Positions 6,456 through 63,639 of a stretch of DNA of 64,000 nt are shown here, in pieces. The translations under genes were made by a program, and so were the position numbers. How positions within the stretch are numbered: position 1 is the first letter of the stretch; the number at the start of each line of letters is the position of its first letter. Origin of the DNA: Candidatus Daviesbacteria bacterium (lineage in GTDB: Bacteria > Patescibacteriota > Microgenomatia > Daviesbacterales > UBA10151). The notes below the pieces were generated by a model, which saw only the letters and a program-made list of their open reading frames with translations, was not told the origin of the DNA and searched no databases. Where the stretch lies: positions 7,497-71,496 of the forward strand of contig JACOXD010000010.1 in the NCBI GenBank assembly GCA_016176465.1. The letters run 5' to 3'.

Positions 6456-6481
6456 CTTAAGAAGGATTATATATTAAAATT

Positions 6482-7015
6482 TTATGGAGTATACTTAAAA
6501 GATTTTGCAATTTGATCAAGATCATCATAGAGCTCTTTAGAGGAGGTAGAGAGTTTATAGACAAAATTGTCAGAATATATAAAATAAATCTTCTCACCAG
6601 TGGGAGAGACATCTGTAGACTTGTAAATACGCACAGAACTTTGATACTTATTGATTTTAATTTCTTTCTTTTCTAAAACTTCTAATTTGGTTACTTTATC
6701 AAAATTGTCTAAATAGCTGACAAGATCATTAAATTGTGTCCCGTTCCTATTTACATATATTTTTCCGTCCGGTGAAGTAAGTATTAATCTAGAAGTTTCC
6801 TCTTTCATATTAAATTCTGGGGGAACATCTAGCTGGAGTTTCAGATTTGAGGAAGAAAATAAATCATGCTTCTGAGTGGAGTTATTTAGAGAACTACTTG
6901 TGCTTCCATTTAATGTTTGGCTATCTTCTTTTTTGTTAAGTAAATTTTGCTTACTATAAACACTTAATAATCCAAAAAGGAAGATTATCCCGATAATTAT
7001 AAAAATAAATTTCAT
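6482..7015 (-). CDS. Hypothetical membrane-anchored secreted protein
   Basis: N-terminal TM/signal anchor MKFIFIIIGIIFLFGLL; Ser/Asn-rich linker. Confidence 0.4.
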   Translation of the reverse strand: MKFIFIIIGIIFLFGLLSVYSKQNLLNKKEDSQTLNGSTSSSLNNSTQKHDLFSSSNLKLQLDVPPEFNMKEETSRLILTSPDGKIYVNRNGTQFNDLVSYLDNFDKVTKLEVLEKKEIKINKYQSSVRIYKSTDVSPTGEKIYFIYSDNFVYKLSTSSKELYDDLDQIAKSFKYTP

Positions 7016-7088
7016 TACGAGTAACTATATTTAAGTGTACCTTTTTCTTTAAAAAACATATAATATTTTTATTCCAAAGTAATTACCT

Positions 7089-49028: not shown

Positions 49029-49307
49029 GTGTCTTACTCTGTCTATATTTTAAGAACTTCATCGAACACTTTATATATTGGGCAAACCAATAATTTAGAA
49101 AAAAGAATTAAAGAGCATAAAAATAAAAAAGGTAAGGGAGCAAAATATATTAGGTCTTTTTCCTCATTTGAATTAGTTTACTTTGAAAAACTCAAAACTA
49201 GATCTGAAGCAATGAAGAGAGAATGGCAACTAAAGGGATGGACAAAAGCCATGAAAGAGACTTTAATCAACTTGGGAAGCAAGTATTTATCCAAGTCCCG
49301 CAGCTAA
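49029..49307 (+). CDS. GIY-YIG nuclease superfamily protein (YhbQ/UPF0213-like)
   Basis: VYILRTSSNTLYIGQTNNLEKRIKEH GIY-YIG motif; 3' end formed by direct repeat. Confidence 0.7.
   Translation: MSYSVYILRTSSNTLYIGQTNNLEKRIKEHKNKKGKGAKYIRSFSSFELVYFEKLKTRSEAMKREWQLKGWTKAMKETLINLGSKYLSKSRS
49278..49305. repeat. Left 28-bp direct repeat AGCAAGTATTTATCCAAGTCCCGCAGCT (att-like, contains tRNA-Gln 3' motif)
   Basis: 27/28 identical to 63612-63639. Confidence 0.65.
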
Positions 49308-49323
49308 GTAAGATCAGGAAATA

Positions 49324-49371
49324 TTGACACTTTAACTTATTGGTATTAGTATATCCCTACTAGGGGGATAT
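49324..49371 (+). promoter_or_regulatory. Promoter TTGACA-17-TAGTAT followed by palindrome ATATCCC-N7-GGGATAT (CsoR-type operator)
   Basis: Read directly, 20 nt upstream of csoR start. Confidence 0.55.
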
Positions 49372-49390
49372 CCTCCAAAGGCGGACAAGT

Positions 49391-49663
49391 ATGGCATATA
49401 GACCAAAAGATACTCAAGAAAGAATTGTTCATAGGTTAAAAATAGCTAAAGGTCATTTAGAAAAGGTTATCAAGATGGTTGAGGATGACTGCTACTGCAT
49501 TGATGTTCTCCACCAATCTCAAGCTGTTCAAAAAGCATTAAGAGAAACAGATAACCTCATGCTAGAAAATCATCTTAAAACTTGCGCTATGGATGCCATA
49601 GGTAAAGGTAGAAAAGAAGAAGCAGTTGCTGAAGTGATCCAGGTATTTAAGAAAATGTCTTAA
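49391..49663 (+). CDS. csoR: Copper-sensing transcriptional repressor CsoR/RcnR family
   Basis: 90 aa; RL.RI.GH...V.KM.ED..YC.DVL.Q..AV..AL helix pattern with conserved Cys/His. Confidence 0.8.
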   Translation: MAYRPKDTQERIVHRLKIAKGHLEKVIKMVEDDCYCIDVLHQSQAVQKALRETDNLMLENHLKTCAMDAIGKGRKEEAVAEVIQVFKKMS

Positions 49664-49786
49664 AGAAAGGAGCAGATATGTGCCCTAATTGCGGTTAAGT
49701 AAACTATGACACCAGATAAGAACCTGCTTCGCAGAACCTTGCCTTTTTGACTAGCGTCAAAAACGTAAAATTTTAGTTTTAAAATT

Positions 49787-50149
49787 ATGGAATTAGATAA
49801 GATTTTTGTAGCACTATTTAGTTTAGGAGGTATTCTATTTACTTATTGGTTTTTCTTAATGAGAAATGAAAAGGAGGTAGCTGTTACCTCTGATTCTATA
49901 GATATTACAGTTGAAGGTGGTTACCAACCAGAGGTTATATCTATTCCCAAAGGAAAAACTACCAAGCTTAATTTTCTCAGAAAAGATCCTTCCAGTTGCT
50001 TAGAAGAAGTAGTTTTAGGAGATTTTAAAGTTAGAAAAACACTACCTCTAAATCAAACTGTAACCATTCCGATTACTCCTCAAAAAGAGGGTGAATATGT
50101 TTTTAGCTGTGGAATGAACATGTTCCATGGAAAGATAAAGGTTGTCTAA
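49787..50149 (+). CDS. Membrane-anchored cupredoxin-like domain protein
   Basis: N-terminal TM, C-terminal FSCGMNMFHGKIKVV; paralogous to C-terminus of 62235-63275. Confidence 0.55.
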   Translation: MELDKIFVALFSLGGILFTYWFFLMRNEKEVAVTSDSIDITVEGGYQPEVISIPKGKTTKLNFLRKDPSSCLEEVVLGDFKVRKTLPLNQTVTIPITPQKEGEYVFSCGMNMFHGKIKVV

Positions 50150-50150
50150 T

Positions 50151-50300
50151 ATGAGTAAAAGTAAATTATATACCTGTCCTGAATGTAGATTCTCTTATAA
50201 AGATAAGGCTTTAGCTAAAAAATGTGAGGCTTGGTGCAAAAAGTACAATAGCTGTAATTTAGAAATTACAAAATACTCAGTAAACAGGGAGGTGTTGTAA
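50151..50300 (+). CDS. Small Cys-rich protein (49 aa; CPEC...C..WC...SC) between cupredoxin gene and copA
   Basis: ORF below track threshold; ATG 1 nt after upstream stop; 3' end supplies SD for copA. Confidence 0.4.
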
Positions 50301-50305
50301 AAAGT

Positions 50306-52735
50306 ATGCCAGCAGTGAGCAAGCTCTCTCCTTTGGAGATAAAAAGAACATTTTCAGTACAAGGAATGCACTGTGCTTCCTGCGTGAGGCTTATTGAAAG
50401 AGCTTTGAGTAGAACTAATGGCATATCAGAGGCAAATGTTAATCTTGCAACTAACAAAGCCACCATCACTTATGATCCTAAAAGTGTTAATGATGAGCAA
50501 ATAGAATCTTCTGTATCCAATATAGGTTATAAAGCATTATTAGACGAGGAAGTTAAATCAGAAGATGATGAGAAAAAAGAAAAACAAAAAGAATTAAGAA
50601 AGTTACAGCATAAAGTTGGTATAAGTTTATTTTTAGGATTACTAATTTTATGGGGTTCTTTTCCGGGTTTAATGAATACTGCCCCAGCTATTTTAAGAAA
50701 TTTTTGGATACAGCTTCTCCTTGCTACCCCAGTTCAATTTTGGGCAGGTTTAGATTTTTATAGAGCTACTATTCCAGCATTAAAACATAGAACAGCTAAC
50801 ATGGACACTTTAGTGGCAATTGGTACAACTGTCGCTTATAGTTATTCAGCTTTTGTCACAGCCCTTCCTCAGGTAGTTAAAAGTATTGGTATTGATCCTC
50901 TCCCTTACTTTGATGTGGCAACTATAATTATTGGTTTAATACTTCTTGGTAGATATTTTGAGGCTAAAGCTAAGGCTGGTACGTCTGAAGCAATTAAAAA
51001 ACTAATAGGTTTGCAGGCAAAAACAGCCAGAGTTTTGAGACTCTCCTCTGTCATCTCGAACGATAGTGAGAGATCTGCAGATTCTAATCTAGAGATTTCT
51101 CTCCGCCAGCTGGCGGATCGAAATGACAAAAGTGAAACAAGTGATGAGAGCAAATATTTAGAAGTAGATATTCCTATAGATCAGGTGGTTATAGGAGATA
51201 TCATTAGAGTACGTCCTGGAGAAAAAATTCCAGTTGATGGAGAAATTTTGGAGGGAGAATCCTCAATTGATGAATCAATGATTACGGGAGAAAGTATTCC
51301 AGCTGACAAAACTAAGGGCGATACAGTCGTAGGTGCAACAATTAATAAATCAGGAACATTTACTTATAAAGCTACCAAAGTAGGACAAGAGACTATGCTT
51401 GCCCAAATTATTAAACTTGTTCAAGAAGCTCAGGGTTCAAAAGCTCCTATCCAAAGAATTGCAGATCTTATTTCCTCTTACTTTGTACCTATTGTCATAA
51501 TACTTGCTTTTGCTACCTTTGGTATCTGGTATGTATTTGGTCCAACCCCAGCTCTTTTATACGCACTTCTAAATACTGTAGCAGTTTTAATTATTGCCTG
51601 TCCTTGTGCCATGGGACTGGCTACACCAACAGCTATTATGGTAGGTACAGGAAAGGGTGCAGAGCATGGAATTTTAATTAAAGATGCAGAAAGTTTAGAA
51701 ACTGCCCACAAAATTAAGACGGTCATCTTTGATAAAACTGGAACTTTAACAAAAGGAAAACCAGAAGTGACAGATATCATTGCGAGGAGTGAAATGATGA
51801 AGCAATCTATAAAGAGAAGATCGCCACGCTTCGCTCGCGATGGCATACTTCGTTTGGCTGCTTCAATAGAAAAAGGCTCTGAACATTCTTTAGCTGAGGC
51901 AATAGTCCAAGAAGCTGAAAAACAAAATATTCAACTGGAACCTGTCACAAAGTTCAAAGCTATTGCAGGGCATGGAGTGGAAGGAGTTGTTGATGGAAAG
52001 CAAGTTTATTTTGGAAACCGAAAATTAATGGAAAGAGAAAAAGTAAGAATCCTAAAACTTGTTCAGGATGACATAGAAAGGTTAGAAAGTGAAGGTAAAA
52101 CTGTAATGATATTAGCAACCTCCTCCCGTCATTCTGAGCGAAGCGAAGAATCTCAACTTATTGGTCTTGTGGCTGTAGCAGATACCGTCAAAGATACTGC
52201 TAAAGAAGGTGTAAAAGCTTTGCAGAAAATGGGTATAGAAGTTGTTATGATCACTGGAGATAACACAAGAAGTGCTAAAGCTATTGCAGATCAGGTAGGT
52301 ATTAAAAGAGTTTTGGCAGAAGTACTACCAGATCAAAAAGAAGCTGAAGTAAGGAAGATTCAAGCGGAGGGCAAAAAAGTGGCAATGGTTGGAGATGGGA
52401 TTAATGATGCACCCGCCTTAGCAGCAGCAGATATTGGAATAGCTATGGGAAGTGGTACGGATGTGGCAATTGAGGCAGCGGATATTACCTTAATAAATAA
52501 GGACCTTAAATCTGTAGCTCAAGCTATTAACCTCTCCAAAAAGACAATGAGAACTATAAAATTAAATCTTTTTTGGGCATTTGGCTATAATGTTTCACTG
52601 ATTCCTGTAGCAATGGGAGTTTTATATCCTTTTTGGGGAATATTGTTAAATCCAATCTTTGCCTCAGTTGCTATGGCCACAAGTTCTATATCAGTTGTTG
52701 GAAACTCATTACTTTTAAAAAGAGTAAGGATTTAA
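50306..52735 (+). CDS. copA: Copper-translocating P1B-type ATPase
   Basis: N-terminal HMA GMHCASC, CPC motif [26 protein letters not shown]; contains at least three in-frame low-complexity/palindromic inserts. Confidence 0.9.
51040..51140. repeat. ~100-bp in-frame palindromic insert in copA (includes perfect 14-bp palindrome CCGCCAGCTGGCGG) encoding ~35 aa [36 protein letters not shown]
   Basis: Segment has no counterpart in canonical CopA between TM4 and the actuator domain. Confidence 0.5.
51816..51846. repeat. In-frame GC-rich repeat (reverse orientation, CGCTTCGCTCGCG) in copA N-domain encoding ~[11 protein letters not shown]
   Basis: Shares core with recX insert. Confidence 0.5.
52128..52154. 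repeat. In-frame repeat GTCATTCTGAGCGAAGCGAAGAATCTC in copA encoding [10 protein letters not shown]
   Basis: 29/32 identical to 56521-56552; GTCATTC head shared with element at 297. Confidence 0.6.
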
Positions 52736-52736
52736 A

Positions 52737-53324
52737 ATGAAAGCATTACCTTCAAAGTTTATTTTAACAAAAAAACCTAAGGAATATTTAAAACAAGGGC
52801 TAACTCATTGTGGTGCTTACTCTGTAAAAGCTATTATAGAAGCATTTGATAAAGACTACAAAAAAGATCCAAGAGATTATCACACTTTTTGGTTAAATAG
52901 ATTAATAGGTACAGGGCTATGGAGATCTTATTATGTGGATATATTAAAATCATTTGATTTAAACGCAAAAGCCAAAGAAGCTAAGAGTCTAACAGACAAA
53001 GAACATTTAGATTTACTTAAGCAATTATTATCCACTAATAATCCTGTGATGATCTATGTTGGGAATGGTTATACAAAAACTGGTGAATACAATAAGCTGC
53101 GAGCAGCACTAGTTGGTCATTGGGTCACTCTTTGGGGTTATTCTGATTCAGAACAAGTATTTTATGTATATGATTCTGCTGCCCCAAAAAAGTTATACGA
53201 TAATGTTCCAGTCGGTAATAAAAAAAGAACTTATGAGCAAATATTAAGAGATTGGAAGGGTGCAAAAATTACTAAATTTATTTGGCCCTGGGAATATTTC
53301 TATATAGAAGTAAAAAATCAATGA
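52737..53324 (+). CDS. Papain-like (C39-like/BtrH-like) cysteine peptidase domain protein
   Basis: Candidate catalytic Cys in LTHCGAYSV and His in GHWVTLWGY; weak. Confidence 0.4.
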   Translation: MKALPSKFILTKKPKEYLKQGLTHCGAYSVKAIIEAFDKDYKKDPRDYHTFWLNRLIGTGLWRSYYVDILKSFDLNAKAKEAKSLTDKEHLDLLKQLLSTNNPVMIYVGNGYTKTGEYNKLRAALVGHWVTLWGYSDSEQVFYVYDSAAPKKLYDNVPVGNKKRTYEQILRDWKGAKITKFIWPWEYFYIEVKNQ

Positions 53325-53602
53325 AAAAACATTTCTTACTATTTTTTCTAGATGATTTTCATCAAGGGGCTATGAATCATTTAATACATTTTGTGGGTTT
53401 CACAGTTTTAGGATACGGATTAGGAAAACCAAGTTTATTTTTAATAATACTCTCTCCTTTTATAATGGAATCAGGACATATTTATAATTATTTAACTGGA
53501 AGACATAAAGAGCTAGCTATAAAAATAATTCCTTTACAGCTTTTAGCATGGGTTATATTTGTAGGCATCGGCTATTTAATTGCTAATTTTTTTGGATACT
53601 AA
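53321..53602 (+). CDS. Small His-rich membrane protein (3 TM)
   Basis: ATG overlapping upstream stop (ATGA); His clusters HQGAMNHLIHF, ESGHIYNY. Confidence 0.4.
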   Translation: MKKHFLLFFLDDFHQGAMNHLIHFVGFTVLGYGLGKPSLFLIILSPFIMESGHIYNYLTGRHKELAIKIIPLQLLAWVIFVGIGYLIANFFGY

Positions 53603-53603
53603 A

Positions 53604-53739
53604 TAATGGGTCTTTGGATAATATTTTTAACTGGTCTAACAGTTGGAGGCTTAACTTATTTAGCCGTACAAGGAGGTCTTCTTGCCTCAGTTGCTATGGC
53701 CACAAGTTCTATATCAGTAGTTCTAACTCTTTATTGTTA
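53604..53739 (+). pseudogene. Chimeric gene remnant: first ~28 codons of a 62235-like gene (MGLWIIFLTGLTVGGLTYLAVQGGLLAS) fused to last ~12 codons of copA ([11 protein letters not shown]...)
   Basis: 5' part matches 62235-62320 at protein and DNA level; 3' part GCCTCAGTTGCTATGGCCACAAGTTCTATATCAGT identical to copA 3' end (52661-52695). Confidence 0.6.
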
Positions 53740-53834
53740 AAGAGGTTCAAGATATGAACCAGACATGTCCTTTCGTTGAGGTATTCTTCCCATTTTTGAA
53801 ATAACTAGTTAACTCTGATTCTGTAGTTTAACTC

Positions 53835-53873
53835 TTTGACATCTGAATGCAGGGATACTACACTTAGTAGTAG
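53835..53873 (+). promoter_or_regulatory. Promoter TTGACA-17-TACTAC with operator palindrome TACTAC-ACTTA-GTAGTA (copy 1)
   Basis: Same palindrome at 58048 and 61442, each ending at a start codon. Confidence 0.55.
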
Positions 53874-53894
53874 ATATTAGAACGAACCAATAAA

Positions 53895-54941
53895 ATGAAC
53901 AAAATACTAATTCTTATAGTTCTATTAATCGTATCAGCAGCAGGGATATTTTTGTATATAAATAGATTTCAAAAACCAGTTGAAGTCTCTCAAGAGGTCT
54001 TGAATAAACTTAATGAAAATAAACCTACTCTTTCCCAAGATGAGGATAGGTTTTTAAATCTGCTTGAGCAAAACGCAGTCTCAGGTGGTCCTCCAAAAGA
54101 TGGCATCCCCGCCATAGATAAACCTCAATATACAACTGCTGCTGAAGCTGATTCTTGGCTTTTACCAAATGATGTTGTTTTTGGAATAGATTACCAAGGT
54201 TTTGTTGCAGCATACCCTCAAAGGATTTTAGTTTGGCATGAAATATTAAATGATCAAATAAACAGACAAAAGGTATCTATTAGTTATTGTCCTCTAACTG
54301 GCACTGCCATTGGTTTTGAGGCTTCAGTAACTAAAGATCTAGATTCATCCTTTGGAGCATCAGGAAAGTTGGTTAACTCTAATTTAATTATGTATGACAG
54401 AATTAGTGATTCCTACTGGCCTCAAATTTTAGGTAAAGCCATTAATGGTCCAGCTAAGGGGAGGAATTTGCAAGAGTTTCCAGTAGTTTGGACAACATGG
54501 GATAAATGGAAAACAAAGTTTCCAGAAACAAAAGTACTTTCTAAAAATACTGGATTTGTTCGTAACTATGATGTTAATGGTGATCCCTATGGATCATATC
54601 TTAGAGAAGATAAAGGATATTATGCTTCTGACAGGCTAATTTTTGAACCGATAAATAAGCAAAGCTTTTCTTCGAATAAGGATGATCGTTTAAAACCGAA
54701 AACAGTAGTAGTGGGAATTCGTGATAAGGATGGTAATGCTGTAGCAATTTTGAAAGATTCTCTGCGCCAACAAAAGAAAATGGAAGTTTCTTTAGGAGAT
54801 AAAGTGGTGGTAGTTGATTATGATCAAAGCCTAGATTTTTACCAAGCATCTGTAAAAGATACAAAAGAAGCGATTAATGCTTTTGATGCTATGTGGTTTG
54901 CCTGGGTAGCATTCTATCCCAATACTAAGTTAATAGAATAA
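53895..54941 (+). CDS. DUF3179 domain protein
   Basis: N-terminal TM; conserved SYCPLTGT block. Confidence 0.55.
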   Translation: MNKILILIVLLIVSAAGIFLYINRFQKPVEVSQEVLNKLNENKPTLSQDEDRFLNLLEQNAVSGGPPKDGIPAIDKPQYTTAAEADSWLLPNDVVFGIDYQGFVAAYPQRILVWHEILNDQINRQKVSISYCPLTGTAIGFEASVTKDLDSSFGASGKLVNSNLIMYDRISDSYWPQILGKAINGPAKGRNLQEFPVVWTTWDKWKTKFPETKVLSKNTGFVRNYDVNGDPYGSYLREDKGYYASDRLIFEPINKQSFSSNKDDRLKPKTVVVGIRDKDGNAVAILKDSLRQQKKMEVSLGDKVVVVDYDQSLDFYQASVKDTKEAINAFDAMWFAWVAFYPNTKLIE

Positions 54942-54942
54942 A

Positions 54943-55506
54943 ATGTTAGCGTTATTTTTATCAATAATTACACAGAGAAAATTTTTCTTAGTAGCCTTGA
55001 TTGTTTTTGTGGTATATATTCTAATTTATTTAGCTGCAGTAGGACATTTGATCTTCACATCCCGCATGGAGCCAGCTTATTCATTTTTAGAAGTAAAATT
55101 CTTGACAAACTGGCAACAACTTCTACTGCGACAAAGGTCACCTTTTTTGTTTGAAGCAATTGGGGCAATCTATATAGGTCCCAATATCAAACTATTTCTC
55201 TCAATTCCTAACTTGATACTTGCTTCAGTGTTAGGATTTCTTGTCGGATCTAACTTTGCCTTAAGTTATTATAACTTTAAGAGATTAGGGTTATCAGGTG
55301 GAAAAGGAGCAGTTGCACTTTTGGGAACCATTCCGGCTATTGTTTCGGGAAGTGTTTGTTGTGTTCCTACTCTGATTCTGGTGCTAGGATTACAATTAAC
55401 AGCTACTTTAGCCACAGCGTGGTCTTTTTTTATTCCACTTTCAATAATCCTGCTTATTTTAAGTCTAGTATGGTCTGTAAAAAGAATTGAAACTGGAAGA
55501 TTGTGA
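54943..55506 (+). CDS. Membrane protein with MerT-like intramembrane Cys-Cys motif (GSVCCVPTLILVLG)
   Basis: 4-5 TM; CC pair in TM resembling MerT TM1 (TCCLGPLVL). Confidence 0.4.
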   Translation: MLALFLSIITQRKFFLVALIVFVVYILIYLAAVGHLIFTSRMEPAYSFLEVKFLTNWQQLLLRQRSPFLFEAIGAIYIGPNIKLFLSIPNLILASVLGFLVGSNFALSYYNFKRLGLSGGKGAVALLGTIPAIVSGSVCCVPTLILVLGLQLTATLATAWSFFIPLSIILLILSLVWSVKRIETGRL

Positions 55507-55522
55507 GGGGAGGTGAAGAATA

Positions 55523-55771
55523 ATGGCAAAAGTAAAAGTTTATTCAATAACAACGTGTCCATATTGTCATATGCTCAAAGAATATTTAAAGGAGAAGAAT
55601 GTAGCTTTTGAAGATATAGTTCTTGACTACAGTCCCGATAAGGCAGTCGAGGCTATTCACATATGTCAGTCAATGGGTGTCCCTTGCACACATATCGTAA
55701 AGGACGATGGAAAGGAAGTTGCCATCTTGGGATTTGACAAAGAAGCAATAGATCGCGCACTCGGACTGTAA
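55523..55771 (+). CDS. Glutaredoxin/NrdH-like redoxin (CPYC)
   Basis: 82 aa; VYSITTCPYCHMLKEYL. Confidence 0.75.
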   Translation: MAKVKVYSITTCPYCHMLKEYLKEKNVAFEDIVLDYSPDKAVEAIHICQSMGVPCTHIVKDDGKEVAILGFDKEAIDRALGL

Positions 55772-55804
55772 TGGAGGGAGGTGCAAAAGGTTATTAATAA
55801 AAAC

Positions 55805-57193
55805 ATGAATAACAAATATGATGTTATTGTAATTGGGGGAGGATCGGCAGGGTTTTCTGTTTTGGAGCAGATTGCCCATAAAGGCTTAAAGATTGCCCTG
55901 GTGGAAAATAGAAAATTGGGAGGATCTTGTCCTAATTTTGCCTGTGTACCCTCTAAAGCTTTAATCAAATGTGCTGAAGTTCTACACACAGCTTTGAATG
56001 CTGATAAATTTGGTATAAATGTTTCTAATATAGGATTTGACTGGAAAAGAGTACAAGAATTTAGAGCAGGTAAGGTAGCTAATACTGCTGCTGCAGAGTC
56101 TGAACAAGATTTAAAAGAAAAAGAGGTTGATCTTATTTGGGGCACTGCCAAGTTTATTTCAGCTTCTGAGATTGAAGTAGATGGGAAGATTTATTCAGCT
56201 GATAAGTTTGCCATTACCACCGGCTCAAGGCCTTTGGTTTTACCAATTGATGGTTTGGAAGAGATTGGTTTTTTAGATTCTGATCAAGGTCTGCAAATAG
56301 ATAAATTGCCTAAATCCTTAACTATACTAGGTGCTGGGCCTGTGGGAATTGAAATAGCTCAGATGTTTGCCAGATTTGGGGTCAAAGTAGCAGTGATCAA
56401 TAGAGGTGGACAGATACTTGGTAGAGAAGAACCAGAAGTGGCAAATCTCGTTCAGGGATTTTTAGAAAAAGAGGGAGTGGAGTTTTTATTAAATGCTCAA
56501 GTTAAAAAAGTGATGCTTCAGCGTCATCCTGAGCGCAGCGAAGGATCTCAAAATCTGAAGCTACTGGAGATAGAAGTCAGTGGGCAGAAAGGAACAATGG
56601 AAGTGGAGCAAATTCTGGTTGCTCCAGGTAGGATTCCCAATATTGACATGCTTGATCTTAAAAAAGCTGGAGTGAAAACTTATGAGAGAGGAATTGTGGT
56701 TGATGAGTACATGCAGACCTCACAGCCTCACATCTATTCTGCTGGAGATGTGGCAGGAATCATGCTTTTTACCCATGCAGCATCTTATGAGGGCTTTATT
56801 ATTGGACAAAACCTCTTGGGCAACAAAATGGAGGTAGATCATAAGGTGATACCAAGAGGAACGTTTTCTGATCCGGAGGTAGGTAGCGTGGGAATAATGG
56901 AAAAAGAGGCCAGGGACAAGGGTTTGAAAGTACAAACTGCTTTGATGGATTATACAGGAGGGAGAGGAGATATCCAGGATGACCCCCTAGGATTAACTAA
57001 GGTGACTGTTGATGCTAAAACCAGACAAATCCTTGGGGCATCAGTAGTGGGTAGAGGCGCTGCTGAGTTTGTGCATATGATAGCCATGGCCATGCATCAT
57101 AAAATTAAAGTTGATGATTTAGATACTCTTGTTTATGCCTTTCCCACTTATGCAGAAGGGTTAGCTGGAATTACTTCCTATCTTAAGGATTAG
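55805..57193 (+). CDS. Class I pyridine nucleotide-disulfide oxidoreductase (MerA/Lpd-like; lacks NmerA and C-terminal Cys pair)
   Basis: GGGSAGF, redox CxxxxC GGSCPNFACVPSK, HPxE-type dimer interface; ATG 55805 preferred over GTG 55781; carries in-frame repeat at 56514-56559. Confidence 0.8.
   Translation: MNNKYDVIVIGGGSAGFSVLEQIAHKGLKIALVENRKLGGSCPNFACVPSKALIKCAEVLHTALNADKFGINVSNIGFDWKRVQEFRAGKVANTAAAESEQDLKEKEVDLIWGTAKFISASEIEVDGKIYSADKFAITTGSRPLVLPIDGLEEIGFLDSDQGLQIDKLPKSLTILGAGPVGIEIAQMFARFGVKVAVINRGGQILGREEPEVANLVQGFLEKEGVEFLLNAQVKKVMLQRHPERSEGSQNLKLLEIEVSGQKGTMEVEQILVAPGRIPNIDMLDLKKAGVKTYERGIVVDEYMQTSQPHIYSAGDVAGIMLFTHAASYEGFIIGQNLLGNKMEVDHKVIPRGTFSDPEVGSVGIMEKEARDKGLKVQTALMDYTGGRGDIQDDPLGLTKVTVDAKTRQILGASVVGRGAAEFVHMIAMAMHHKIKVDDLDTLVYAFPTYAEGLAGITSYLKD
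56514..56559. repeat. In-frame repeat GCTTCAG-CGTCATCCTGAGCGCAGCGAAGGATCTCAAAAT-CTGAAGC encoding QRHPERSEGSQNLK
   Basis: Flanked by 7-bp inverted repeat; homologous to copA insert at 52128. Confidence 0.6.
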
Positions 57194-57196
57194 CAT

Positions 57197-57730
57197 ATGT
57201 ACAATCAACAAAAACTTTTAAAATTCAGAAAGCAAAAAGACGAAGCTTGGAAAGAAGATGCCCAGTCTCCCTTAGCTGAGGAGCAAAAGCGAAGCTTTAA
57301 AGGTCTAAATTATTTTCCTCCTAATCCTGATTTTAGTTTTGAACTAGAGTTAAATAAAAATATCCCTGGTGTGGGTGAGAGAGTAGTAATTAAAACAACG
57401 GGTGGGGATGAGCAGGTCTATTTAAGAGCTGGAAGGGTCAAGTTCAATGTTGAGGGTAAAGAGGTAGAGGCATTAGTGTTTGAAGATCCAGAGCAAGAAC
57501 AGTTTCAATATTATTTATTATTTAGAGACCAAACAACAGGAAAGGAAACTTATGAAAATGGCAGAATGTTACAAATCCCTAAAAAAGGAGATAAGTTAGT
57601 AATCGATTTTAATTATGCATATAATCCCTATAGCTCATATAATAACAATTGGGATTGTCCAATTACCCCTCAAGAAAATATCTTACCTTTGGCAATTCAG
57701 GCTGGAGAAAAGATTTTTAAGAACTTATGA
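57197..57730 (+). CDS. DUF1684 domain protein
   Basis: Pattern F.GL.YFPP...F; WDCPITP motif. Confidence 0.5.
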   Translation: MYNQQKLLKFRKQKDEAWKEDAQSPLAEEQKRSFKGLNYFPPNPDFSFELELNKNIPGVGERVVIKTTGGDEQVYLRAGRVKFNVEGKEVEALVFEDPEQEQFQYYLLFRDQTTGKETYENGRMLQIPKKGDKLVIDFNYAYNPYSSYNNNWDCPITPQENILPLAIQAGEKIFKNL

Positions 57731-57772
57731 ATGTTGTGTATAAAATTCTGCCTGGAAGGGGGTGATAGCTTA

Positions 57773-58000
57773 ATGAAGAAACTTCTTATAGGAGGGGTTG
57801 CAGCTGCAATAATGTATGCAAGCATGGTAGTACCTGTTTTTGCTGATGGGCCAACTAGTCCCAATGTTAGTCCAGTTGTTGTTCCCTTAGCTCAGACAGG
57901 AACTTTTGGTCAAACTGTTTGTAGCGTTCTTGGCCAGGCTAATCTTGAGAATAATGTGGTTTTAACAGTACAGGGGCATGACCCCTCTCACATTAACTGA
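57773..58000 (+). CDS. Small secreted protein (signal peptide)
   Basis: MKKLLIGGVAAAIMYASMVVPVFA signal; SD GGAAGGGGGTGA. Confidence 0.4.
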   Translation: MKKLLIGGVAAAIMYASMVVPVFADGPTSPNVSPVVVPLAQTGTFGQTVCSVLGQANLENNVVLTVQGHDPSHIN

Positions 58001-58047
58001 AGTGGTCTACTTCCTAAAAATAAACAGTTGCTTTATTAAAAACTTAG

Positions 58048-58067
58048 TACTACACTAAGTAGTAGTA
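58048..58067 (+). promoter_or_regulatory. Operator palindrome TACTAC-ACTAA-GTAGTA (copy 2) ending 2 nt before blaI-like start
   Basis: Read directly; nested larger palindrome ACTTAGT...ACTAAGT. Confidence 0.55.
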
Positions 58068-58069
58068 AT

Positions 58070-58462
58070 ATGGAAAAACAGCAAAAGGTTGGTAAAGTGT
58101 TAGGTGAGTTAGAATCAGAAGTGATGGAGATAATTTGGCAATCTAAAATGCCAATTTCTGTAAGAACTGTTACTCAAATCTTGCAAACAAAGCGCCAGAT
58201 TGCTTATACAACAGTCATGACCATTATGGGGAGATTAACTGATAAAGGTTTGCTTAAGCGTACAGAATCTGGTAAAGCATATATTTACAGATCAGTCTAT
58301 TCAAAAGAAAAGTTTCTTACCAGAGTATCCCGCCAGATTATTAAAAATTTTGTTGCTAATTTTGGTGACGGCGCAGTAGCTCATTTTGCAGCGGAAGTGG
58401 AAAAACTAGAACCTTCTAAGAGGAAAGACTTAACTAAATTATTAAAGGAGGTAAGAAAATAG
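58070..58462 (+). CDS. BlaI/MecI/CopY family winged-helix repressor (no C-terminal metal-binding Cys motif)
   Basis: LGELESEVMEIIW....VR.V..IL...R.IAYTTVMT...RL..KGLL. Confidence 0.8.
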   Translation: MEKQQKVGKVLGELESEVMEIIWQSKMPISVRTVTQILQTKRQIAYTTVMTIMGRLTDKGLLKRTESGKAYIYRSVYSKEKFLTRVSRQIIKNFVANFGDGAVAHFAAEVEKLEPSKRKDLTKLLKEVRK

Positions 58463-58463
58463 C

Positions 58464-59477
58464 ATGGGTGCTAACAAAGCCTTCTGCATGCTCCTACTCT
58501 CTTTTGTTGTTGCTTTAGTTGGTTTGGGTACTGTGTTTTTTAAAACAGTTCCGCTCCTTCTTTCTCATGCAGTTTATGTTTGCCAAGAGACTTTCTCTAA
58601 TATTCTTTTTGGCATCTCGCATTCTGTTCCTCTTGTTCTAATTACTTTAGTAATCATGGTTTTACTTATTGGTCTTGTAACTTTATTGATACAAGTTTTA
58701 AAAACTAGAAATTATCTTAAGAAGCATATGAGAGAAAGAGTACCCATCCCCTCTAGTTTGATAGAAATAACCAAAGAACTTGGCTTAAATGATAGCGTTG
58801 ATGTTGTTAAAGATAGAAGTAAATTTTCTTTCTGTTATGGATTGATTCACCCTAGAATTTGTTTAAGTACAGGTCTTTTAAGATCATTAAATACAAGAGA
58901 ACTTAAAGCAGTGATACTTCATGAGAGTTACCATGTTAAAAATCGGGATCCACTTAAAATAATCCTTGGCAAAACAGCATCTTTAATGTTCTTCTTTATT
59001 CCATTGCTAAAAGATATTCAAAACTTCTATGCTTTATCAAAAGAGATAGCTGCAGATAAACTTGTGGTCGGTAATGGATATAGACATTCCCTAATTTCCG
59101 TTCTTTCAAAGCTTTTAGTGGCTGGCTCATCTAAATTCAGTGGCGTAGCAGCACTAGCTAGTTTAGATGATTTAGAAAGAAGGATACTGTTGCTCACAGG
59201 TAATCAGAAAAGATCAATATTTAAACCCTCACTGCTCAACATATCAATGTCGGCTTTTGTAGTTTTGTTTTCCCTGGCACTTATGAATACCCCAGCTTAT
59301 GCAGTTTCTGATCATGAAGGGTCTATGGAAAGCTCAATGTTTACTGCGAAGCAGGAAGTTTACTTCATTTGTCCTTTTGGGGATAAATGTGCGCTGTCTT
59401 GCAAGGCAAAGGAAGAGGAGGGTGGAAATTACAGTCAAGACTTAATGTATACACCGATGCATTACACACCAAAATGA
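58464..59477 (+). CDS. BlaR1-like M56 family membrane metalloprotease lacking penicillin-binding sensor domain; Cys-rich C-terminal tail
   Basis: HEXXH HESYHVKNRD; 4 TM; C-terminal CPFGDKCALSC. Confidence 0.7.
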   Translation: MGANKAFCMLLLSFVVALVGLGTVFFKTVPLLLSHAVYVCQETFSNILFGISHSVPLVLITLVIMVLLIGLVTLLIQVLKTRNYLKKHMRERVPIPSSLIEITKELGLNDSVDVVKDRSKFSFCYGLIHPRICLSTGLLRSLNTRELKAVILHESYHVKNRDPLKIILGKTASLMFFFIPLLKDIQNFYALSKEIAADKLVVGNGYRHSLISVLSKLLVAGSSKFSGVAALASLDDLERRILLLTGNQKRSIFKPSLLNISMSAFVVLFSLALMNTPAYAVSDHEGSMESSMFTAKQEVYFICPFGDKCALSCKAKEEEGGNYSQDLMYTPMHYTPK

Positions 59478-60442
59478 ACAGTAAATTAGTTTATATCATA
59501 GTTGCGGTTTTGCTTTTAGGAGGAGTAGTTTTCTTTGCTCAAAAACAAGCGGGTGCTCCGAAACTTAAATCTGAAACAGCACAAAGCTTACCTGCAACAA
59601 CGCAAGAAGAATCTGTTAGGGAAAATTCAACTTATGGTCATGTACACGCTTTAATTTCTAATCCTCAAGATAACAGCCTATTGTTGGGTACTCATGAAGG
59701 TTTGTTTAAGAGTGCAGATGGAGGGAAAACTTTTCAGAAAGTGGGTGTTAAAGGTGAAGTTAATGCAATGGATTTCATGAACTTTGCGTATGACCAGAAT
59801 AATAAAATCATTTATGCTGGTGGACATGATTTGGGAGTTGTTAAAAGCACTGATGGTGGAGTAACTTGGGCAAAAACAGATTCAGGGATTCAAGGTACGG
59901 ATATTCATGCTTTGGCTATGAACCCCCTTGATACTAACAGGTTATATGTTTTCTCAGTAGGTAATGGAGTTTATGGAACTAAAGATGGGGCAAAAAGTTG
60001 GTATAGAATTGATGATGGACCAGCGAACCCATCTGTAGTAGCTTTTGGATATATGGCAACTCCCTCAAGTATGGACCGCGGTATGAAAACTGATAAAACT
60101 ACTAATATTGGCTACCTTTGGGCAGGAACTGGAGGAGGGTTATATAGCTCATTTGCTTGTTTCTGTGGCTGGACTAAAACATCAGGTGTAACAGATAGAG
60201 CCACTATTTATACACTTGCTCCTGATCCAATAGACAAAAGTAGTATGCTTGCAGGAACCAAAGATGGTATTTACAAAACGACTGATGAGGGGAGAAATTT
60301 TACTAAGATAAGTGATATTAAAGACATTGCTGCCCTTAATTTTAATACATCTAATCCTAAAACAATTTATGCTGCTACTGCCGATGGTGCGATTTATAGA
60401 AGTGATGATGAAGGTAAGAATTGGAGTAAAGTGAATGAATAA
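59474..60442 (+). CDS. Ycf48-like/BNR-repeat beta-propeller protein, membrane-anchored
   Basis: Repeated S.DGG.TW / T.DG..W blades; ATG overlaps upstream stop (ATGA). Confidence 0.55.
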   Translation: MNSKLVYIIVAVLLLGGVVFFAQKQAGAPKLKSETAQSLPATTQEESVRENSTYGHVHALISNPQDNSLLLGTHEGLFKSADGGKTFQKVGVKGEVNAMDFMNFAYDQNNKIIYAGGHDLGVVKSTDGGVTWAKTDSGIQGTDIHALAMNPLDTNRLYVFSVGNGVYGTKDGAKSWYRIDDGPANPSVVAFGYMATPSSMDRGMKTDKTTNIGYLWAGTGGGLYSSFACFCGWTKTSGVTDRATIYTLAPDPIDKSSMLAGTKDGIYKTTDEGRNFTKISDIKDIAALNFNTSNPKTIYAATADGAIYRSDDEGKNWSKVNE

Positions 60443-60671
60443 GCAAAGCTTGTCTTTTGCTGTCGCAAAACGTAAGTTTTTTAACAGCTGTAGGCGCTGT
60501 TTAAACCCCTGGATAATTGCCTTAATTACTGTTGTAGTGGTTGGATTATTAATTTTTCTTCCTATTTTAGGAGTAGCAACTTTGATAGCAGCTCTTCCTC
60601 TGGTAGGTTGTACTGTAATGTGTGGTGCAATGGCTCTTATGATGCGGGATCACAAAAAAGATAAAAGTTAA
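60435..60671 (+). CDS. Small membrane protein with intramembrane Cys cluster (GCTVMCG)
   Basis: ORF, 2 TM. Confidence 0.4.
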   Translation: MNKQSLSFAVAKRKFFNSCRRCLNPWIIALITVVVVGLLIFLPILGVATLIAALPLVGCTVMCGAMALMMRDHKKDKS

Positions 60672-60673
60672 GT

Positions 60674-61414
60674 ATGAGATTGATTTTCCTGCCCATTGTT
60701 GTATTTATTATCTTAGCTGTAACGCTTTTATCGCAAAATTTATTTCCAAAAAATACACTCGAGTCAACTATTGCAAATTGGAATGATGGAACAGATGCTT
60801 TTTATCAGCAGGTTTTAAAAAGTGATGGTGATTGGGTAGATCATGCAGGTGAGGCAGTTTTTGATAACTATCCTGTAAAAAGTATTTCAAAGCTGGAAAC
60901 AGAAAATATTTTGGCACAAGCAAGGCAGCCACAACCACCAGTTTTGGGACTGCATACTGCACCTGACGGAGCAGAAAAATGGATTGAGATAGACCTATCT
61001 AATCTTAAACTTTATGCTTGGGAAGGAAACCGCAAAGTTTATGAATTTTTAATATCAACAGGCCGTCCTGGCTATAACACCCCTACAGGTGAGTTTAGGG
61101 TTTGGAGAAAGGTACTATCACAAGCCTATAAAGGCGGCTCAAGAGAAAGGGGCGATTACTACTACTTACCTAATGTTCCCTTCTCTTTATTTTTCGGTGG
61201 CGGAAATGTTTCTAACTGGAAAGGTTATGCTATCCATGGAGCATATTGGCACAGTGACTTTGGTATAAAAAACAGGAGTAGTGGGTGTGTAAATGTGAAA
61301 CCTGAAGAAGCAGGACTTTTGTACCAATGGGCTGGTCCTGCTATGCCTGCTGGGACAGGAGTTTTAAATTCAACTCCTGATAACCCTGGTGTAAGAGTAA
61401 TCGTACATGATTAA
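60674..61414 (+). CDS. L,D-transpeptidase (YkuD domain)
   Basis: YAIHGAYWHSDFG...SSGCVNV catalytic His/Cys motif. Confidence 0.75.
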   Translation: MRLIFLPIVVFIILAVTLLSQNLFPKNTLESTIANWNDGTDAFYQQVLKSDGDWVDHAGEAVFDNYPVKSISKLETENILAQARQPQPPVLGLHTAPDGAEKWIEIDLSNLKLYAWEGNRKVYEFLISTGRPGYNTPTGEFRVWRKVLSQAYKGGSRERGDYYYLPNVPFSLFFGGGNVSNWKGYAIHGAYWHSDFGIKNRSSGCVNVKPEEAGLLYQWAGPAMPAGTGVLNSTPDNPGVRVIVHD

Positions 61415-61421
61415 TTTCCCC

Positions 61422-61461
61422 TTGACAAGTTAAAGTTTATCTACTACAGTAAGTAGTAGTA
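61422..61461 (+). promoter_or_regulatory. Promoter TTGACA-17-TACAGT with operator palindrome TACTAC-AGTAA-GTAGTA (copy 3) abutting start codon
   Basis: Read directly. Confidence 0.55.
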
Positions 61462-62231
61462 TGGATAAACAGTCAGGTATTCGAATCAACCTTTTTATTT
61501 CAACCCCAATAGCTATTTTAATTGGGTCTGTGATAATCGCTTTAGCTATTCTGGTAAATGGTGGAATCATCAAATTTAAAGGATCAGTTGCTACTAAATC
61601 ACCAACTACTCAAGCAGCTCAAGCTCCAACTGCAACAGCCCCACAAGCTCCCCAACCAGAACCTCAAGCTGGCCCTGTAGAACCCCTAAAAGATGAAGAT
61701 CATGTCAGGGGTGAAAGAAAAGCTAGGATTTTACTTTTTGAATACTCAGATTTAGAGTGTCCCTTCTGTAAAAGATTTCATCCCACTGCTAAACAAATAG
61801 TAGATACCTACAAAGGAGAAGTGGCTTGGGTATATAGGCATTTTCCTTTGGATCAAATCCATTCTAAAGCAGATAAAGAAGCAGAGGCTATAGAGTGTGC
61901 AAATGAGTTGGGTGGTGAAGATGGGTTTTGGAAGATGACAGACAAGATATTTGAGGTAACACCTTCTAATAATGGTTTAAATTTGGAAGATCTGCCAAAA
62001 CTGGCAGGGGAAGTAGGGCTAAATCAAGCTACATTTAAGTCATGTTTAGATAGTGGTAAATACACAGCTCATGTAGAAGAGGATTATCAGGGTGGAATAA
62101 AAGCTGGTATTACAGGTACACCTGGCAATATTCTACTTGATACTAAACTCAATAAGACTAAATTAATACCTGGTGCACTACCCTTTGAGCAATTTAAACA
62201 AGCAATAGATGCTATGCTTAAGGAAGCATAA
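61461..62231 (+). CDS. DsbA-family thiol:disulfide oxidoreductase (CPFC), membrane-anchored
   Basis: FEYSDLECPFCKRFH thioredoxin-fold active site. Confidence 0.75.
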   Translation: MDKQSGIRINLFISTPIAILIGSVIIALAILVNGGIIKFKGSVATKSPTTQAAQAPTATAPQAPQPEPQAGPVEPLKDEDHVRGERKARILLFEYSDLECPFCKRFHPTAKQIVDTYKGEVAWVYRHFPLDQIHSKADKEAEAIECANELGGEDGFWKMTDKIFEVTPSNNGLNLEDLPKLAGEVGLNQATFKSCLDSGKYTAHVEEDYQGGIKAGITGTPGNILLDTKLNKTKLIPGALPFEQFKQAIDAMLKEA

Positions 62232-62234
62232 CAA

Positions 62235-63275
62235 ATGGATCTTTGGTTAATATTTCTAACTGGTTTAACTGTTGGTGGACTTACCTGTCTAGCTGTGCAG
62301 GGGGGTCTTCTCGCCTCTACTATTGCTGCAAGGGAAGAGGAAGATATAGACGCAGGAAGCAGAAGAAAACATACTATATTCCCCACTGCAGCCTTTTTAA
62401 CTACTAAGCTTATTGCCTATACGATTTTAGGCTTTCTTTTAGGACTATTCGGACAAACCCTACAGATCTCTGGTAGTGCTCAAACTGTGATGCAGCTTCT
62501 AGCTGGAGGATACATGATAGCTGTGGCACTAAATCTTCTTAATGTTCACCCAATATTCAGATACGCCATTATTCAACCCCCAAGATTTTTAACCAGATTA
62601 ATTAGAAATCAAACTAAATCTAAAGATATTTTTGCTCCAGCCTTGCTTGGTGTTATGACCATCTTTATTCCTTGTGGAACAACTCTAGCTATGGAAGCAT
62701 TAGCAATCTCTTCAGGTAAACCATTTCTCGGCTCAATGATTATGGGAGCATTTACTTTAGGCACTATGCCACTATTTTTTGGTATTGGGTTCTTAACTTC
62801 TTTGCTGGGGGATACTTTCAGAGCCAAATTTTTCAAAATAGCAGGAGTTTTGGTGTTATATCTAGGTATTATCTCATTTAATGGGGCACTAGTTGCTAGC
62901 GGTTCTCCTATTACTTTACAGTCAATTGGACAAGCTTTACCAATTGAGATTGATTTATCTGGAGGGCAAGCTGCAGCATCTGCTGATTCAAATGTAAAAC
63001 TCGTTGGTGGAGTTCAAACTGTCGATATGTCTGTTTTCCCCACCAGCTATAGTCCAAACTACATTCAGGTAAAAGCAGGCACTCCTGTTAGGTTGAATTT
63101 AACTCCATCAGGTGGTTTAGGATGTACTTCATTTTTTAGAATTCCAAAACTGAGAATTACTAAAAAATTGGCTCAAGGCGCAACTGAAACTGTTGAGTTT
63201 ACCCCTCAAAGTCCTGGAAGATTAACCTTTACCTGTTCAATGGGAATGTATACAGGGACAATAGAGGTTATATAA
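62235..63275 (+). CDS. DsbD/CcdA-like (DsbD_2) membrane protein with intramembrane Cys pair fused to C-terminal cupredoxin-like domain
   Basis: TM Cys in GGLTCLAVQGG and FIPCGTTLA; C-terminal FTCSMGMYTGTIEVI. Confidence 0.55.
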   Translation: MDLWLIFLTGLTVGGLTCLAVQGGLLASTIAAREEEDIDAGSRRKHTIFPTAAFLTTKLIAYTILGFLLGLFGQTLQISGSAQTVMQLLAGGYMIAVALNLLNVHPIFRYAIIQPPRFLTRLIRNQTKSKDIFAPALLGVMTIFIPCGTTLAMEALAISSGKPFLGSMIMGAFTLGTMPLFFGIGFLTSLLGDTFRAKFFKIAGVLVLYLGIISFNGALVASGSPITLQSIGQALPIEIDLSGGQAAASADSNVKLVGGVQTVDMSVFPTSYSPNYIQVKAGTPVRLNLTPSGGLGCTSFFRIPKLRITKKLAQGATETVEFTPQSPGRLTFTCSMGMYTGTIEVI

Positions 63276-63320
63276 GCGGAGCTTGATACTTCGTATTGAG
63301 GCGAAGCCTCTAATTTCATT

Positions 63321-63557
63321 ATGAGTAAAATAGTAAAGAAAAAATTAAAGATTGATGGGATGCACTGCAGCAGCTGTGCCATGAATATAGAGTTTGATTT
63401 AGAGGATGTGGAAGGTATTAAATCGGCTAAAGCTAGCCTGGTAAAAGAGGAATGCGAAGTAGAATTTGATGAAGAAAAAGTTAATGAGCAAATGATTATC
63501 CAAACTATCCAGAAAACTGGGTACCAAGCAAGGTTACAAGAAGAGTCTAAGCAGTAA
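63321..63557 (+). CDS. copZ: Heavy-metal-associated (HMA) copper chaperone
   Basis: GMHCSSC motif, 78 aa ferredoxin-like. Confidence 0.8.
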   Translation: MSKIVKKKLKIDGMHCSSCAMNIEFDLEDVEGIKSAKASLVKEECEVEFDEEKVNEQMIIQTIQKTGYQARLQEESKQ

Positions 63558-63611
63558 TAGGGTTTCTGATTCCTACTGCGCACCAGTTCCTGACAAGCTT
63601 TTCTTTTGCAA

Positions 63612-63639
63612 AGCAAGTATTAATCCAAGTCCCGCAGCT
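63612..63639. repeat. Right 28-bp direct repeat AGCAAGTATTAATCCAAGTCCCGCAGCT (att-like)
   Basis: 27/28 identical to 49278-49305. Confidence 0.65.

Follow-up and report, generated by a model that had tools for sequence, protein, structure and literature searches.

Genomic islands that target the 3' ends of genes, be they tRNA, tmRNA or protein genes, carry a replacement 3' end with them, and in reduced, tightly packed genomes the erosion of pseudogenes leaves fusion remnants. Homology-facilitated illegitimate recombination at microhomologies of 3-10 bp is treated for transformable bacteria in an article that, in its passage on this mechanism, cites the 2002 work of de Vries and Wackernagel and names Acinetobacter baylyi, Streptococcus pneumoniae and Pseudomonas stutzeri (PMC6382021). 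Here we describe a seam of this sort in a copper locus of Candidatus Daviesbacteria, contained in a 64,000-nt stretch of one contig (the window) whose proteins are 100% identical to entries of one Candidatus Daviesbacteria genome. Between g93 and the DUF3179 gene of this locus lies a short chimeric ORF that reads as the first 28 codons of a DsbD-like gene followed by the last 25 codons of a copper-pump gene (Table 1), and we hold with considerable confidence that it is without function, a scar left when a DsbD-type gene recombined illegitimately with a copA-type gene.

Table 1. Coordinates in the window of the scar, its two parent-type genes and the neighbouring features.
Feature	Position	Strand	Description
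Resident copA	50306..52735	+	809 aa copper P-type ATPase; Pfam HMA, E1-E2_ATPase, Hydrolase
R1, 37-nt exact direct repeat in copA	52659..52695	+	last transmembrane helix; codons about 785-797
Resident copA tail	52696..52735	+	ends KRVRI
g195	52737..53324	+	195 aa, peptidase C39-like / BtrH_N-like; weak Pfam matches
g93	53321..53602	+	93-aa histidine-rich membrane protein, HYS91_04610
Chimeric ORF	53606..53740	+	44 codons + stop
Chimeric ORF, protein layout	53606..53740	+	MGLWIIFLTGLTVGGLTYLAVQGGLLAS, then copA-type stretch (11 aa), then LTLYC and stop
DsbD_2/cupredoxin-type-only part of scar	53606..53681	+	first 25 codons
Putative junction microhomology TTGCCTC	53682..53688	+	DsbD-type parent CT[TC]GCCTC, copA parent TTTGCCTC
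R2, second copy of 37-nt repeat	53682..53718	+	copA codons (12 aa)
Diverged copA 3' tail	53719..53757	+	own TGA 53755-53757; out of frame; restored = VVSNSLLLKRFKI and stop
DUF3179 gene	53895..54941	+	Pfam; first gene past scar
Resident DsbD_2 + cupredoxin gene	62235..63275	+	Pfam DsbD_2, Cupredoxin_1; intact homologue of scar 5' half

The locus begins in the order GIY-YIG, CsoR, cupredoxin, a 49-aa zinc-ribbon ORF, copA, g195 (C39-like), g93 and the scar, continues with DUF3179, a 187-aa membrane protein, glutaredoxin, a pyridine-nucleotide disulphide oxidoreductase, DUF1684 and an 89-aa ORF, and then runs through BlaI, BlaR, a BNR protein, a 78-aa ORF, an L,D-transpeptidase, DsbA and the DsbD_2 and cupredoxin gene (DsbD2cup) to CopZ. 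Compared with the closest relatives, 52737-58069, scar included, is extra material between copA and BlaI, and its right-hand part reaches from the DUF3179 gene through the 89-aa ORF, to 58000. The loci L016 and L017 (copA 80%) have CsoR, cupredoxin, copA, a 133-aa ORF, BNR, p78, DsbD2cup and CopZ, and L018, from Daviesbacteria GW2011_GWA2_38_24 (copA 75%), has CsoR, cupredoxin, copA, BlaI, BlaR, CopZ, DsbA and DsbD2cup, with the BlaI start 2 nt past the copA stop. The chimeric ORF is missing from the syntenic loci L016 and L018, and an exact-protein look-up of the DUF3179 protein returned no record.

The outer borders of the locus carry a repeat of their own. Just past CopZ, at 63611-63639, the end of the GIY-YIG gene recurs (its final 11 codons, ...LGSKYLSKSRS and stop, 49277-49305), as 29 nt with one difference or 34 nt at 91%, with TTA changed to TAA in the downstream copy; the two copies flank the entire 14.3-kb copper locus from CsoR to CopZ, and chance produced such a repeat in 0 of 100 shuffles. 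The repeat may mark the border of an island, or it may be what is left of another GIY-YIG gene. Small GIY-YIG genes stand directly beside g195 homologues in 4 of 80 loci (L025, L029, L033, L037), and L007 has a GIY-YIG gene between two transketolase-domain genes that adjoin directly in L018. Genes for small GIY-YIG nucleases may be mobile and could promote local rearrangements.

The two collinear halves of the scar are each homologous to a different gene above chance in blastn and tblastn searches of the window. Its 5' half aligns without gaps to the start of the resident DsbD_2 and cupredoxin gene (53605-53688 against 62234-62317, 79.8% identity, blastn E = 2e-16 within the window; tblastn with the DsbD N-terminus against the window, E = 4e-10), and counted from the ATG, 66 of 84 nt and 25 of 28 amino acids are identical. 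An earlier note on this DNA had read here a DsbD-like start that passes into copA, with about 80% identity over 80 nt as the value to be checked, and both the chimera and its significance at the DNA level are borne out by these figures and by those for the copA half. The note's ORF of 45 codons at 53604 exists in a slightly different form, with 44 codons plus stop and a start 2 nt later. Between scar and resident gene 17 codons differ, 14 of them synonymously, the replacements being G2D, I5L and Y18C; at the last of these the scar has Tyr where the cysteine of the conserved GGLTCLAVQGG motif stands, a residue kept in every full-length homologue inspected. The DsbD-like 76 nt have no other occurrence in the window. 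Against the homologue of another organism, in L015, 63 of 83 nt are identical (76%), and since the half is thus 79% identical to the resident gene and 76% to that of another organism, its source is a diverged homologue and no recent copy. What the earlier note called a second copy of the 62235-type gene is therefore a second DsbD_2/cupredoxin-type gene, not a recent duplicate. The switch into copA falls where the note had placed it, at TTGCCTC, which is exact in copA and matches at 6 of 7 positions in the resident DsbD gene (CTCGCCTC), here a stand-in for the actual DsbD parent.

Downstream of this switch the scar repeats the resident copA, whose protein is 100% identical to the NCBI copper-translocating P-type ATPase of Candidatus Daviesbacteria. 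Over 53682-53722 the scar agrees with 52659-52699, codons about 785-798 of copA, in 40 of 41 nt, the first 37 exactly (blastn E = 6e-17 within the window), and this repeat (family D5) is the closest to exact of all repeats in the 64 kb. Orthologous copA genes match the 41-nt stretch at only 25-34 of its 41 positions, which, beside the exact 37 nt shared with the resident copA, fits two copies of one sequence. What had been described as the exact last 35 nt of copA is indeed an exact copA match, in fact of 37 nt, and the end of copA lies 40 nt further on, at 52735. Past the repeat the agreement between remnant and resident copA, 37/37 up to that point, drops sharply to 26/40 (Fisher p = 3.5e-5). 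In the tails 10 codons differ, the stop codon included, 7 of them without change of product. The T run at 53721-53722 has a 1-nt deletion; an insertion at 53722/53723, turning GTTCT into GTTTCT, restores the frame, and the remnant tail then reads SNSLLLKRFKI and stop, a complete copA 3' end.

Among the best 120 copA homologues KRFKI is the commonest ending (17/120) and KRVRI is found once (1/120), as well as in L042. From ASV onward the restored C-terminus equals exactly those of P0093, P0096 and P0100, three of the nearest homologues. Because KRFKI is common in the family, this match is weak evidence that the remnant holds the native tail, and a comparison of tails across loci involves too few nucleotides to tell which tail is native. 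Taken together, the remnant reads as three segments, namely a diverged DsbD-type 5' end, 37 nt equal to the resident copA and a complete copA 3' end of separate descent, formerly functional and now frameshifted. The mostly synonymous codon differences and the consensus form of the restored tail indicate that the source genes of both halves were under selection while they diverged.

The resident copA also has insertions of its own. At 52127-52156, as in the disulphide oxidoreductase gene at 56522-56551, an in-frame insert carries nearly the same 30-nt motif (CGTCATYCTGAGCGMAGCGAAGRATCTCAA), encoding a 10-aa peptide in copA and RHPERSEGSQ in the oxidoreductase, and the copA of L049 has an 11-aa insert, by eye apparently at the same place. 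Lineage-specific inserts are also present at 51044-51157 and 51782-51850, and with them this copA reaches 809 aa, compared with mostly 730-790 in its nearest homologues.

The two genes that separate copA from the scar are found in other company elsewhere. The family of g195 comprises 148 cluster representatives, and g195 adjoins a copA or cupredoxin gene in about a dozen of 80 loci (L030, L042, L049, L055, L066, L077, L093, L098 and others), after copA in L042, L049 and L098 and between cupredoxin and copA in L030, L055 and L093. For g93 there are 85 homologues, which stand directly upstream of copA in L007 and L009-L011 and alone in several unrelated contexts. A second g93 homologue of the same genome, HYS91_05385 (P0013; L004/L005, 1622-1909), is 74% identical; considered as a g93 copy in copper context, it was rejected, its neighbours being ABC-transporter and glyoxalase-like genes. 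We also rejected a g93 remnant between cupredoxin and copA, the gap there being the zinc-ribbon ORF, a cysteine-rich frame at 50151-50300 of the window. Homologues of this ORF adjoin g195 in L077, L085 and L098, which makes it another travelling accessory gene of the copper operon.

A comparable seam is present in L042 (Ga0213870_1000776, 9268-9396), where the order is CsoR, cupredoxin, copA (KRVRI), g195, a 219-aa membrane ORF, a 42-codon ORF, BlaI, BlaR and DsbA. The seam encodes MNLW plus 38 aa and consists of ATGAATCTTTGGATAT joined to the last 38 codons of a second copA; its first 16 nt equal the DsbD2cup start, the first 12 nt being identical to L015, and the MNLW start also occurs in L018 and L025. 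Its copA part is about 78% identical to the locus's own copA, with a longest identical run of 14 nt. In its relative position and in its pair of parents, a DsbD2cup start and a copA end, this seam agrees with the one in the window, but it joins 16 nt of DsbD to 38 copA codons, compared with 76-83 nt and 25 codons in the window, and it has an intact frame, no long repeat to the resident copA and BlaI directly after it. The copA part of the L042 seam is undamaged consensus, which suggests a recent date for that seam and an independent origin of the two. In L042 the called copA has 690 aa, without the N-terminal HMA domain, and about 530 nt without a called gene lie between cupredoxin and copA (5398-5926). 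In L012, at about 5943-5990, a decayed copA 3' stub (...ISVVSNLLLLKRYKI and stop) stands 10 nt upstream of a g93 homologue, and the other copA sequence is gone. That g93 homologue is the closest to the window's (86% identity), and the contig is labelled uncultured archaeon.

In order to account for the scar we favour a one-step insertion by microhomology-mediated (homology-facilitated) illegitimate recombination, an explanation whose chances we regard as evenly balanced. The ancestral copA tail would have been the ending now displaced in the remnant, in its restored KRFKI form, and 986 nt from a homologous copper locus with another arrangement would have been spliced into the copA 3' end. This piece would have consisted of a copA tail ending in KRVRI and stop, g195, g93 and the opening 25 codons of a DsbD-type gene. 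The left joint would have formed in register through copA homology, and the right joint illegitimately at the TTGCCTC microhomology, 37 nt upstream of the left joint. Such an exchange would duplicate 37 nt, leave copA intact with a new tail, and move the original copA 3' end downstream by 1 kb, into an in-frame fusion with the DsbD start, where the displaced piece would later have gained the 1-nt deletion and probably also Cys18Tyr. The chimeric build, the exact repeat with sudden divergence behind it, the damage, the lack of the scar in relatives and the recurrence of such seams are observed, whereas we infer in which order the steps came, that the inserted piece is of outside origin and by which pathway it recombined.

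Consistent with this explanation, 52696-53681 is one uninterrupted collinear stretch of copA tail, g195, g93 and DsbD start, which begins inside copA at 52696 while the copA frame runs on to its normal stop. The block may be foreign; it is missing from the closest relatives, and its KRVRI tail is rare among the copA homologues but shared with L042. Collinear pieces of a suitable donor are known, with copA followed by g195 in L042, L049 and L098 and the DsbD_2 ATG 2 nt past the copA stop in L015. A single insertion explains the exact repeat, the abrupt divergence, the intact copA and the consensus tail of the remnant. On the other side, the donor-like arrangement of g93 followed by a DsbD gene was in none of the fetched loci, neither among those with g93 homologues (L004-L011, L100) nor in the species-representative genomes (L012-L014); a relative with an empty site, whose copA would end in ...SVVSNSLLLKRFKI and stop (KRFKI) and be followed by ACCAGACATGTCC... 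from the DUF3179 upstream region, was not found; and the sliding-window identity of copA against three orthologues gave no crossover breakpoint. If illegitimate ends fall at random, it would furthermore be a coincidence for two independent events to stop inside the first 16-83 nt of a DsbD gene, and the progressive erosion of a dead second module explains these end points more naturally.

That erosion belongs to a second explanation, which we consider possible and clearly less probable: a deletion in a once-complete second module, in the order copA, g195, g93, DsbD', (CopZ'), copA', DUF3179. From DsbD' codon 28 to the last 25 codons of copA', about 3.4 kb would have been lost in one or several internal deletions, and the 37-nt identity would be the leftover of gene conversion between full-length copA paralogues before the deletion. 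The order DsbD2cup, CopZ, copA does exist in L014, with g93 after copA, and a simple deletion would yield exactly such a fusion. In tightly packed genomes erosion is bounded by live neighbours and the extreme 5' and 3' ends are the last to go, and this would explain both the seam of the same kind with other end points in L042 and the lone copA 3' stub upstream of g93 in L012. The L042 remnant, in which no stretch identical to the resident copA exceeds 14 nt, also behaves as a separate paralogue would. However, a deletion needs at least three events, namely the gain of a second module at the precise spot between g93 and DUF3179, the gene conversion and the deletion itself; the conversion tract would have to end as abruptly as the change from identity to divergence at the end of the repeat; and the intact two-module arrangement is present in none of the sampled loci. 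The exact 37-nt repeat followed by abrupt divergence fits the one-step insertion at least as well as the deletion. The earlier note had concluded that the copper module was once duplicated or arranged differently, and a different earlier arrangement is what our data support, with no complete second module in any sampled locus; the intact second DsbD-like gene that it proposed to look for at this position in relatives was not found.

We regard it as quite unlikely that the 37-nt repeat and the 986 nt together form a 1,023-nt circularisable cassette with its own copA 3' end, integrated in a site-specific or circle-mediated manner. Exact 37-nt direct repeats at both ends of the unit, a target gene restored in frame by element-borne sequence and a native 3' end displaced to the other junction would all suit such a cassette, and the last 29-34 nt of the GIY-YIG gene show the same signature on a larger scale around the 14.3-kb locus. 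Yet the ORFs between the repeats are g195 and g93 only, neither the unit nor its flanks carry a gene for an integrase or recombinase, and the ORFs scanned over the locus (49029-63557) included no recombinase. The L042 seam is without a long repeat, viral contigs contained no relatives of g93 or g195 and no match to the junction, and the formation of a circle would itself need the illegitimate joint of DsbD to copA.

Still less probable, and in our view very unlikely, is that the ORF is a real small gene for a new 44-aa hydrophobic membrane protein whose translation is coupled to g93. The ATG lies 3 nt past the g93 stop, the frame is open and its sequence hydrophobic, and the counterpart in L042 is open as well, over 42 codons. 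Against these points, the ORF closes where it does through a shift out of the copA frame, the Cys kept in the homologues is missing, the junctions of the two seams differ and a Pfam scan of the 44-aa ORF gave no match. Conservation is lacking: the exact 44-aa protein is found elsewhere on one short contig only, from the same sample series, and the search with the ORF found no homologues of similar length in diverged genomes. Its five matches were the ORF itself (P0086), P0087 and three short DsbD_2-like starts. P0087, considered as a second scar, was rejected as a fragment of a frameshifted DsbD_2 gene in L015; in that locus (5859-8837) copA and the DsbD_2 gene are each split into several called ORFs, which are either real pseudogene frameshifts or assembly errors of the Logan contig.

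The ORF also belongs to neither parental family, as only the first helix (28 aa) of DsbD_2 (PF13386) is present and copA is represented by no more than its last 25 codons, without E1-E2 ATPase or HAD domains. Across 52500-54100 promoter-like sites were at background level only, a terminator scan found none and an Rfam scan gave no match. With the 1-nt deletion ahead of the copA-type stop, the change of conserved Cys18 to Tyr and the absence of a Pfam domain as signs of lost function, the 44-aa ORF is best labelled a remnant in annotation, rather than a hypothetical protein. The view of the earlier note that this is a scar of illegitimate recombination gains support from the DNA-level significance of both halves, the selection-type substitutions, the frameshift and the loss of Cys18, and further from the presence of the ORF in one population only and from the independent seam in L042. 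A false assembly join at the 37-nt repeat is extremely unlikely: the contig does come from a metagenome-assembled genome, and L002, a Logan contig that by its reported gene coordinates would correspond to 52666-53711 of the window, starts and ends inside the two repeat copies, like k = 31 graphs, but L001, a Logan contig assembled from a different run of the same series, is 100% identical to 53339-54300 and covers g93, the scar and the DUF3179 start, the repeat should be shorter than an Illumina read, and the DsbD-like 76 nt, found nowhere else in the window, must join something.

The seam gives a view at base-pair resolution of how a copper locus was rebuilt in Candidatus Daviesbacteria, an uncultivated lineage with small genomes. 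It divides a left from a right block, neither of which the closest relatives have between copA and BlaI, and it shows copA to have come through the event intact. The value of the seam is local, in that it dates and orients a rearrangement of the copper locus. The L042 seam, in another lineage, suggests that accessory genes have repeatedly been shuffled between the same two framework genes, and the two seams together hint that gene blocks are exchanged preferentially between copA and DsbD2cup. A further extension, which we offer as speculative and rather unlikely, is that the interval from the copA 3' end to the DsbD_2/cupredoxin 5' end is a recurrent cassette slot in copper loci of the Microgenomates group, with movement as a circle and an extension to the whole locus. 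If this were true, small blocks such as g195, g93, the zinc-ribbon ORF and BlaI/BlaR would have been captured repeatedly by recombination via the two framework genes, seams of a DsbD 5' end with a copA 3' end would be a diagnostic footprint, the 1,023-nt unit might move as a circle without an integrase, and the duplicated GIY-YIG 3' end would extend the mechanism to the entire 14.3-kb locus.

Compared with the known systems, the scar resembles pseudogene erosion in its short 5' and 3' stubs beside live neighbours, its frameshift and its loss of a key residue, but it differs in being a chimera of two parents and in repeating exactly part of a live gene that lies 1 kb off, and these two properties point to a recombination joint rather than simple decay. 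With islands at gene 3' ends it shares the flanking direct repeats, a target gene restored by the insert and a native 3' end at the far junction, whereas it lacks the integrase by which such elements are defined and has an insert of only about 1 kb, a far junction that is a fusion to the 5' end of an unrelated gene, and a repeat inside a coding transmembrane helix. To homology-facilitated illegitimate recombination, as far as that mechanism is set out in the passage cited above (PMC6382021), it corresponds in having one joint in homology, here in register in copA, the other at a putative microhomology, here 5-7 nt compared with 3-10 bp, and presumably foreign genes gained beside the anchor. 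It departs from that mechanism in being deduced from natural sequence alone and in the recipient joint lying upstream of the homologous joint, which yields the 37-nt duplication. The scar is a well-resolved new instance of an ordinary, known kind of recombination event.
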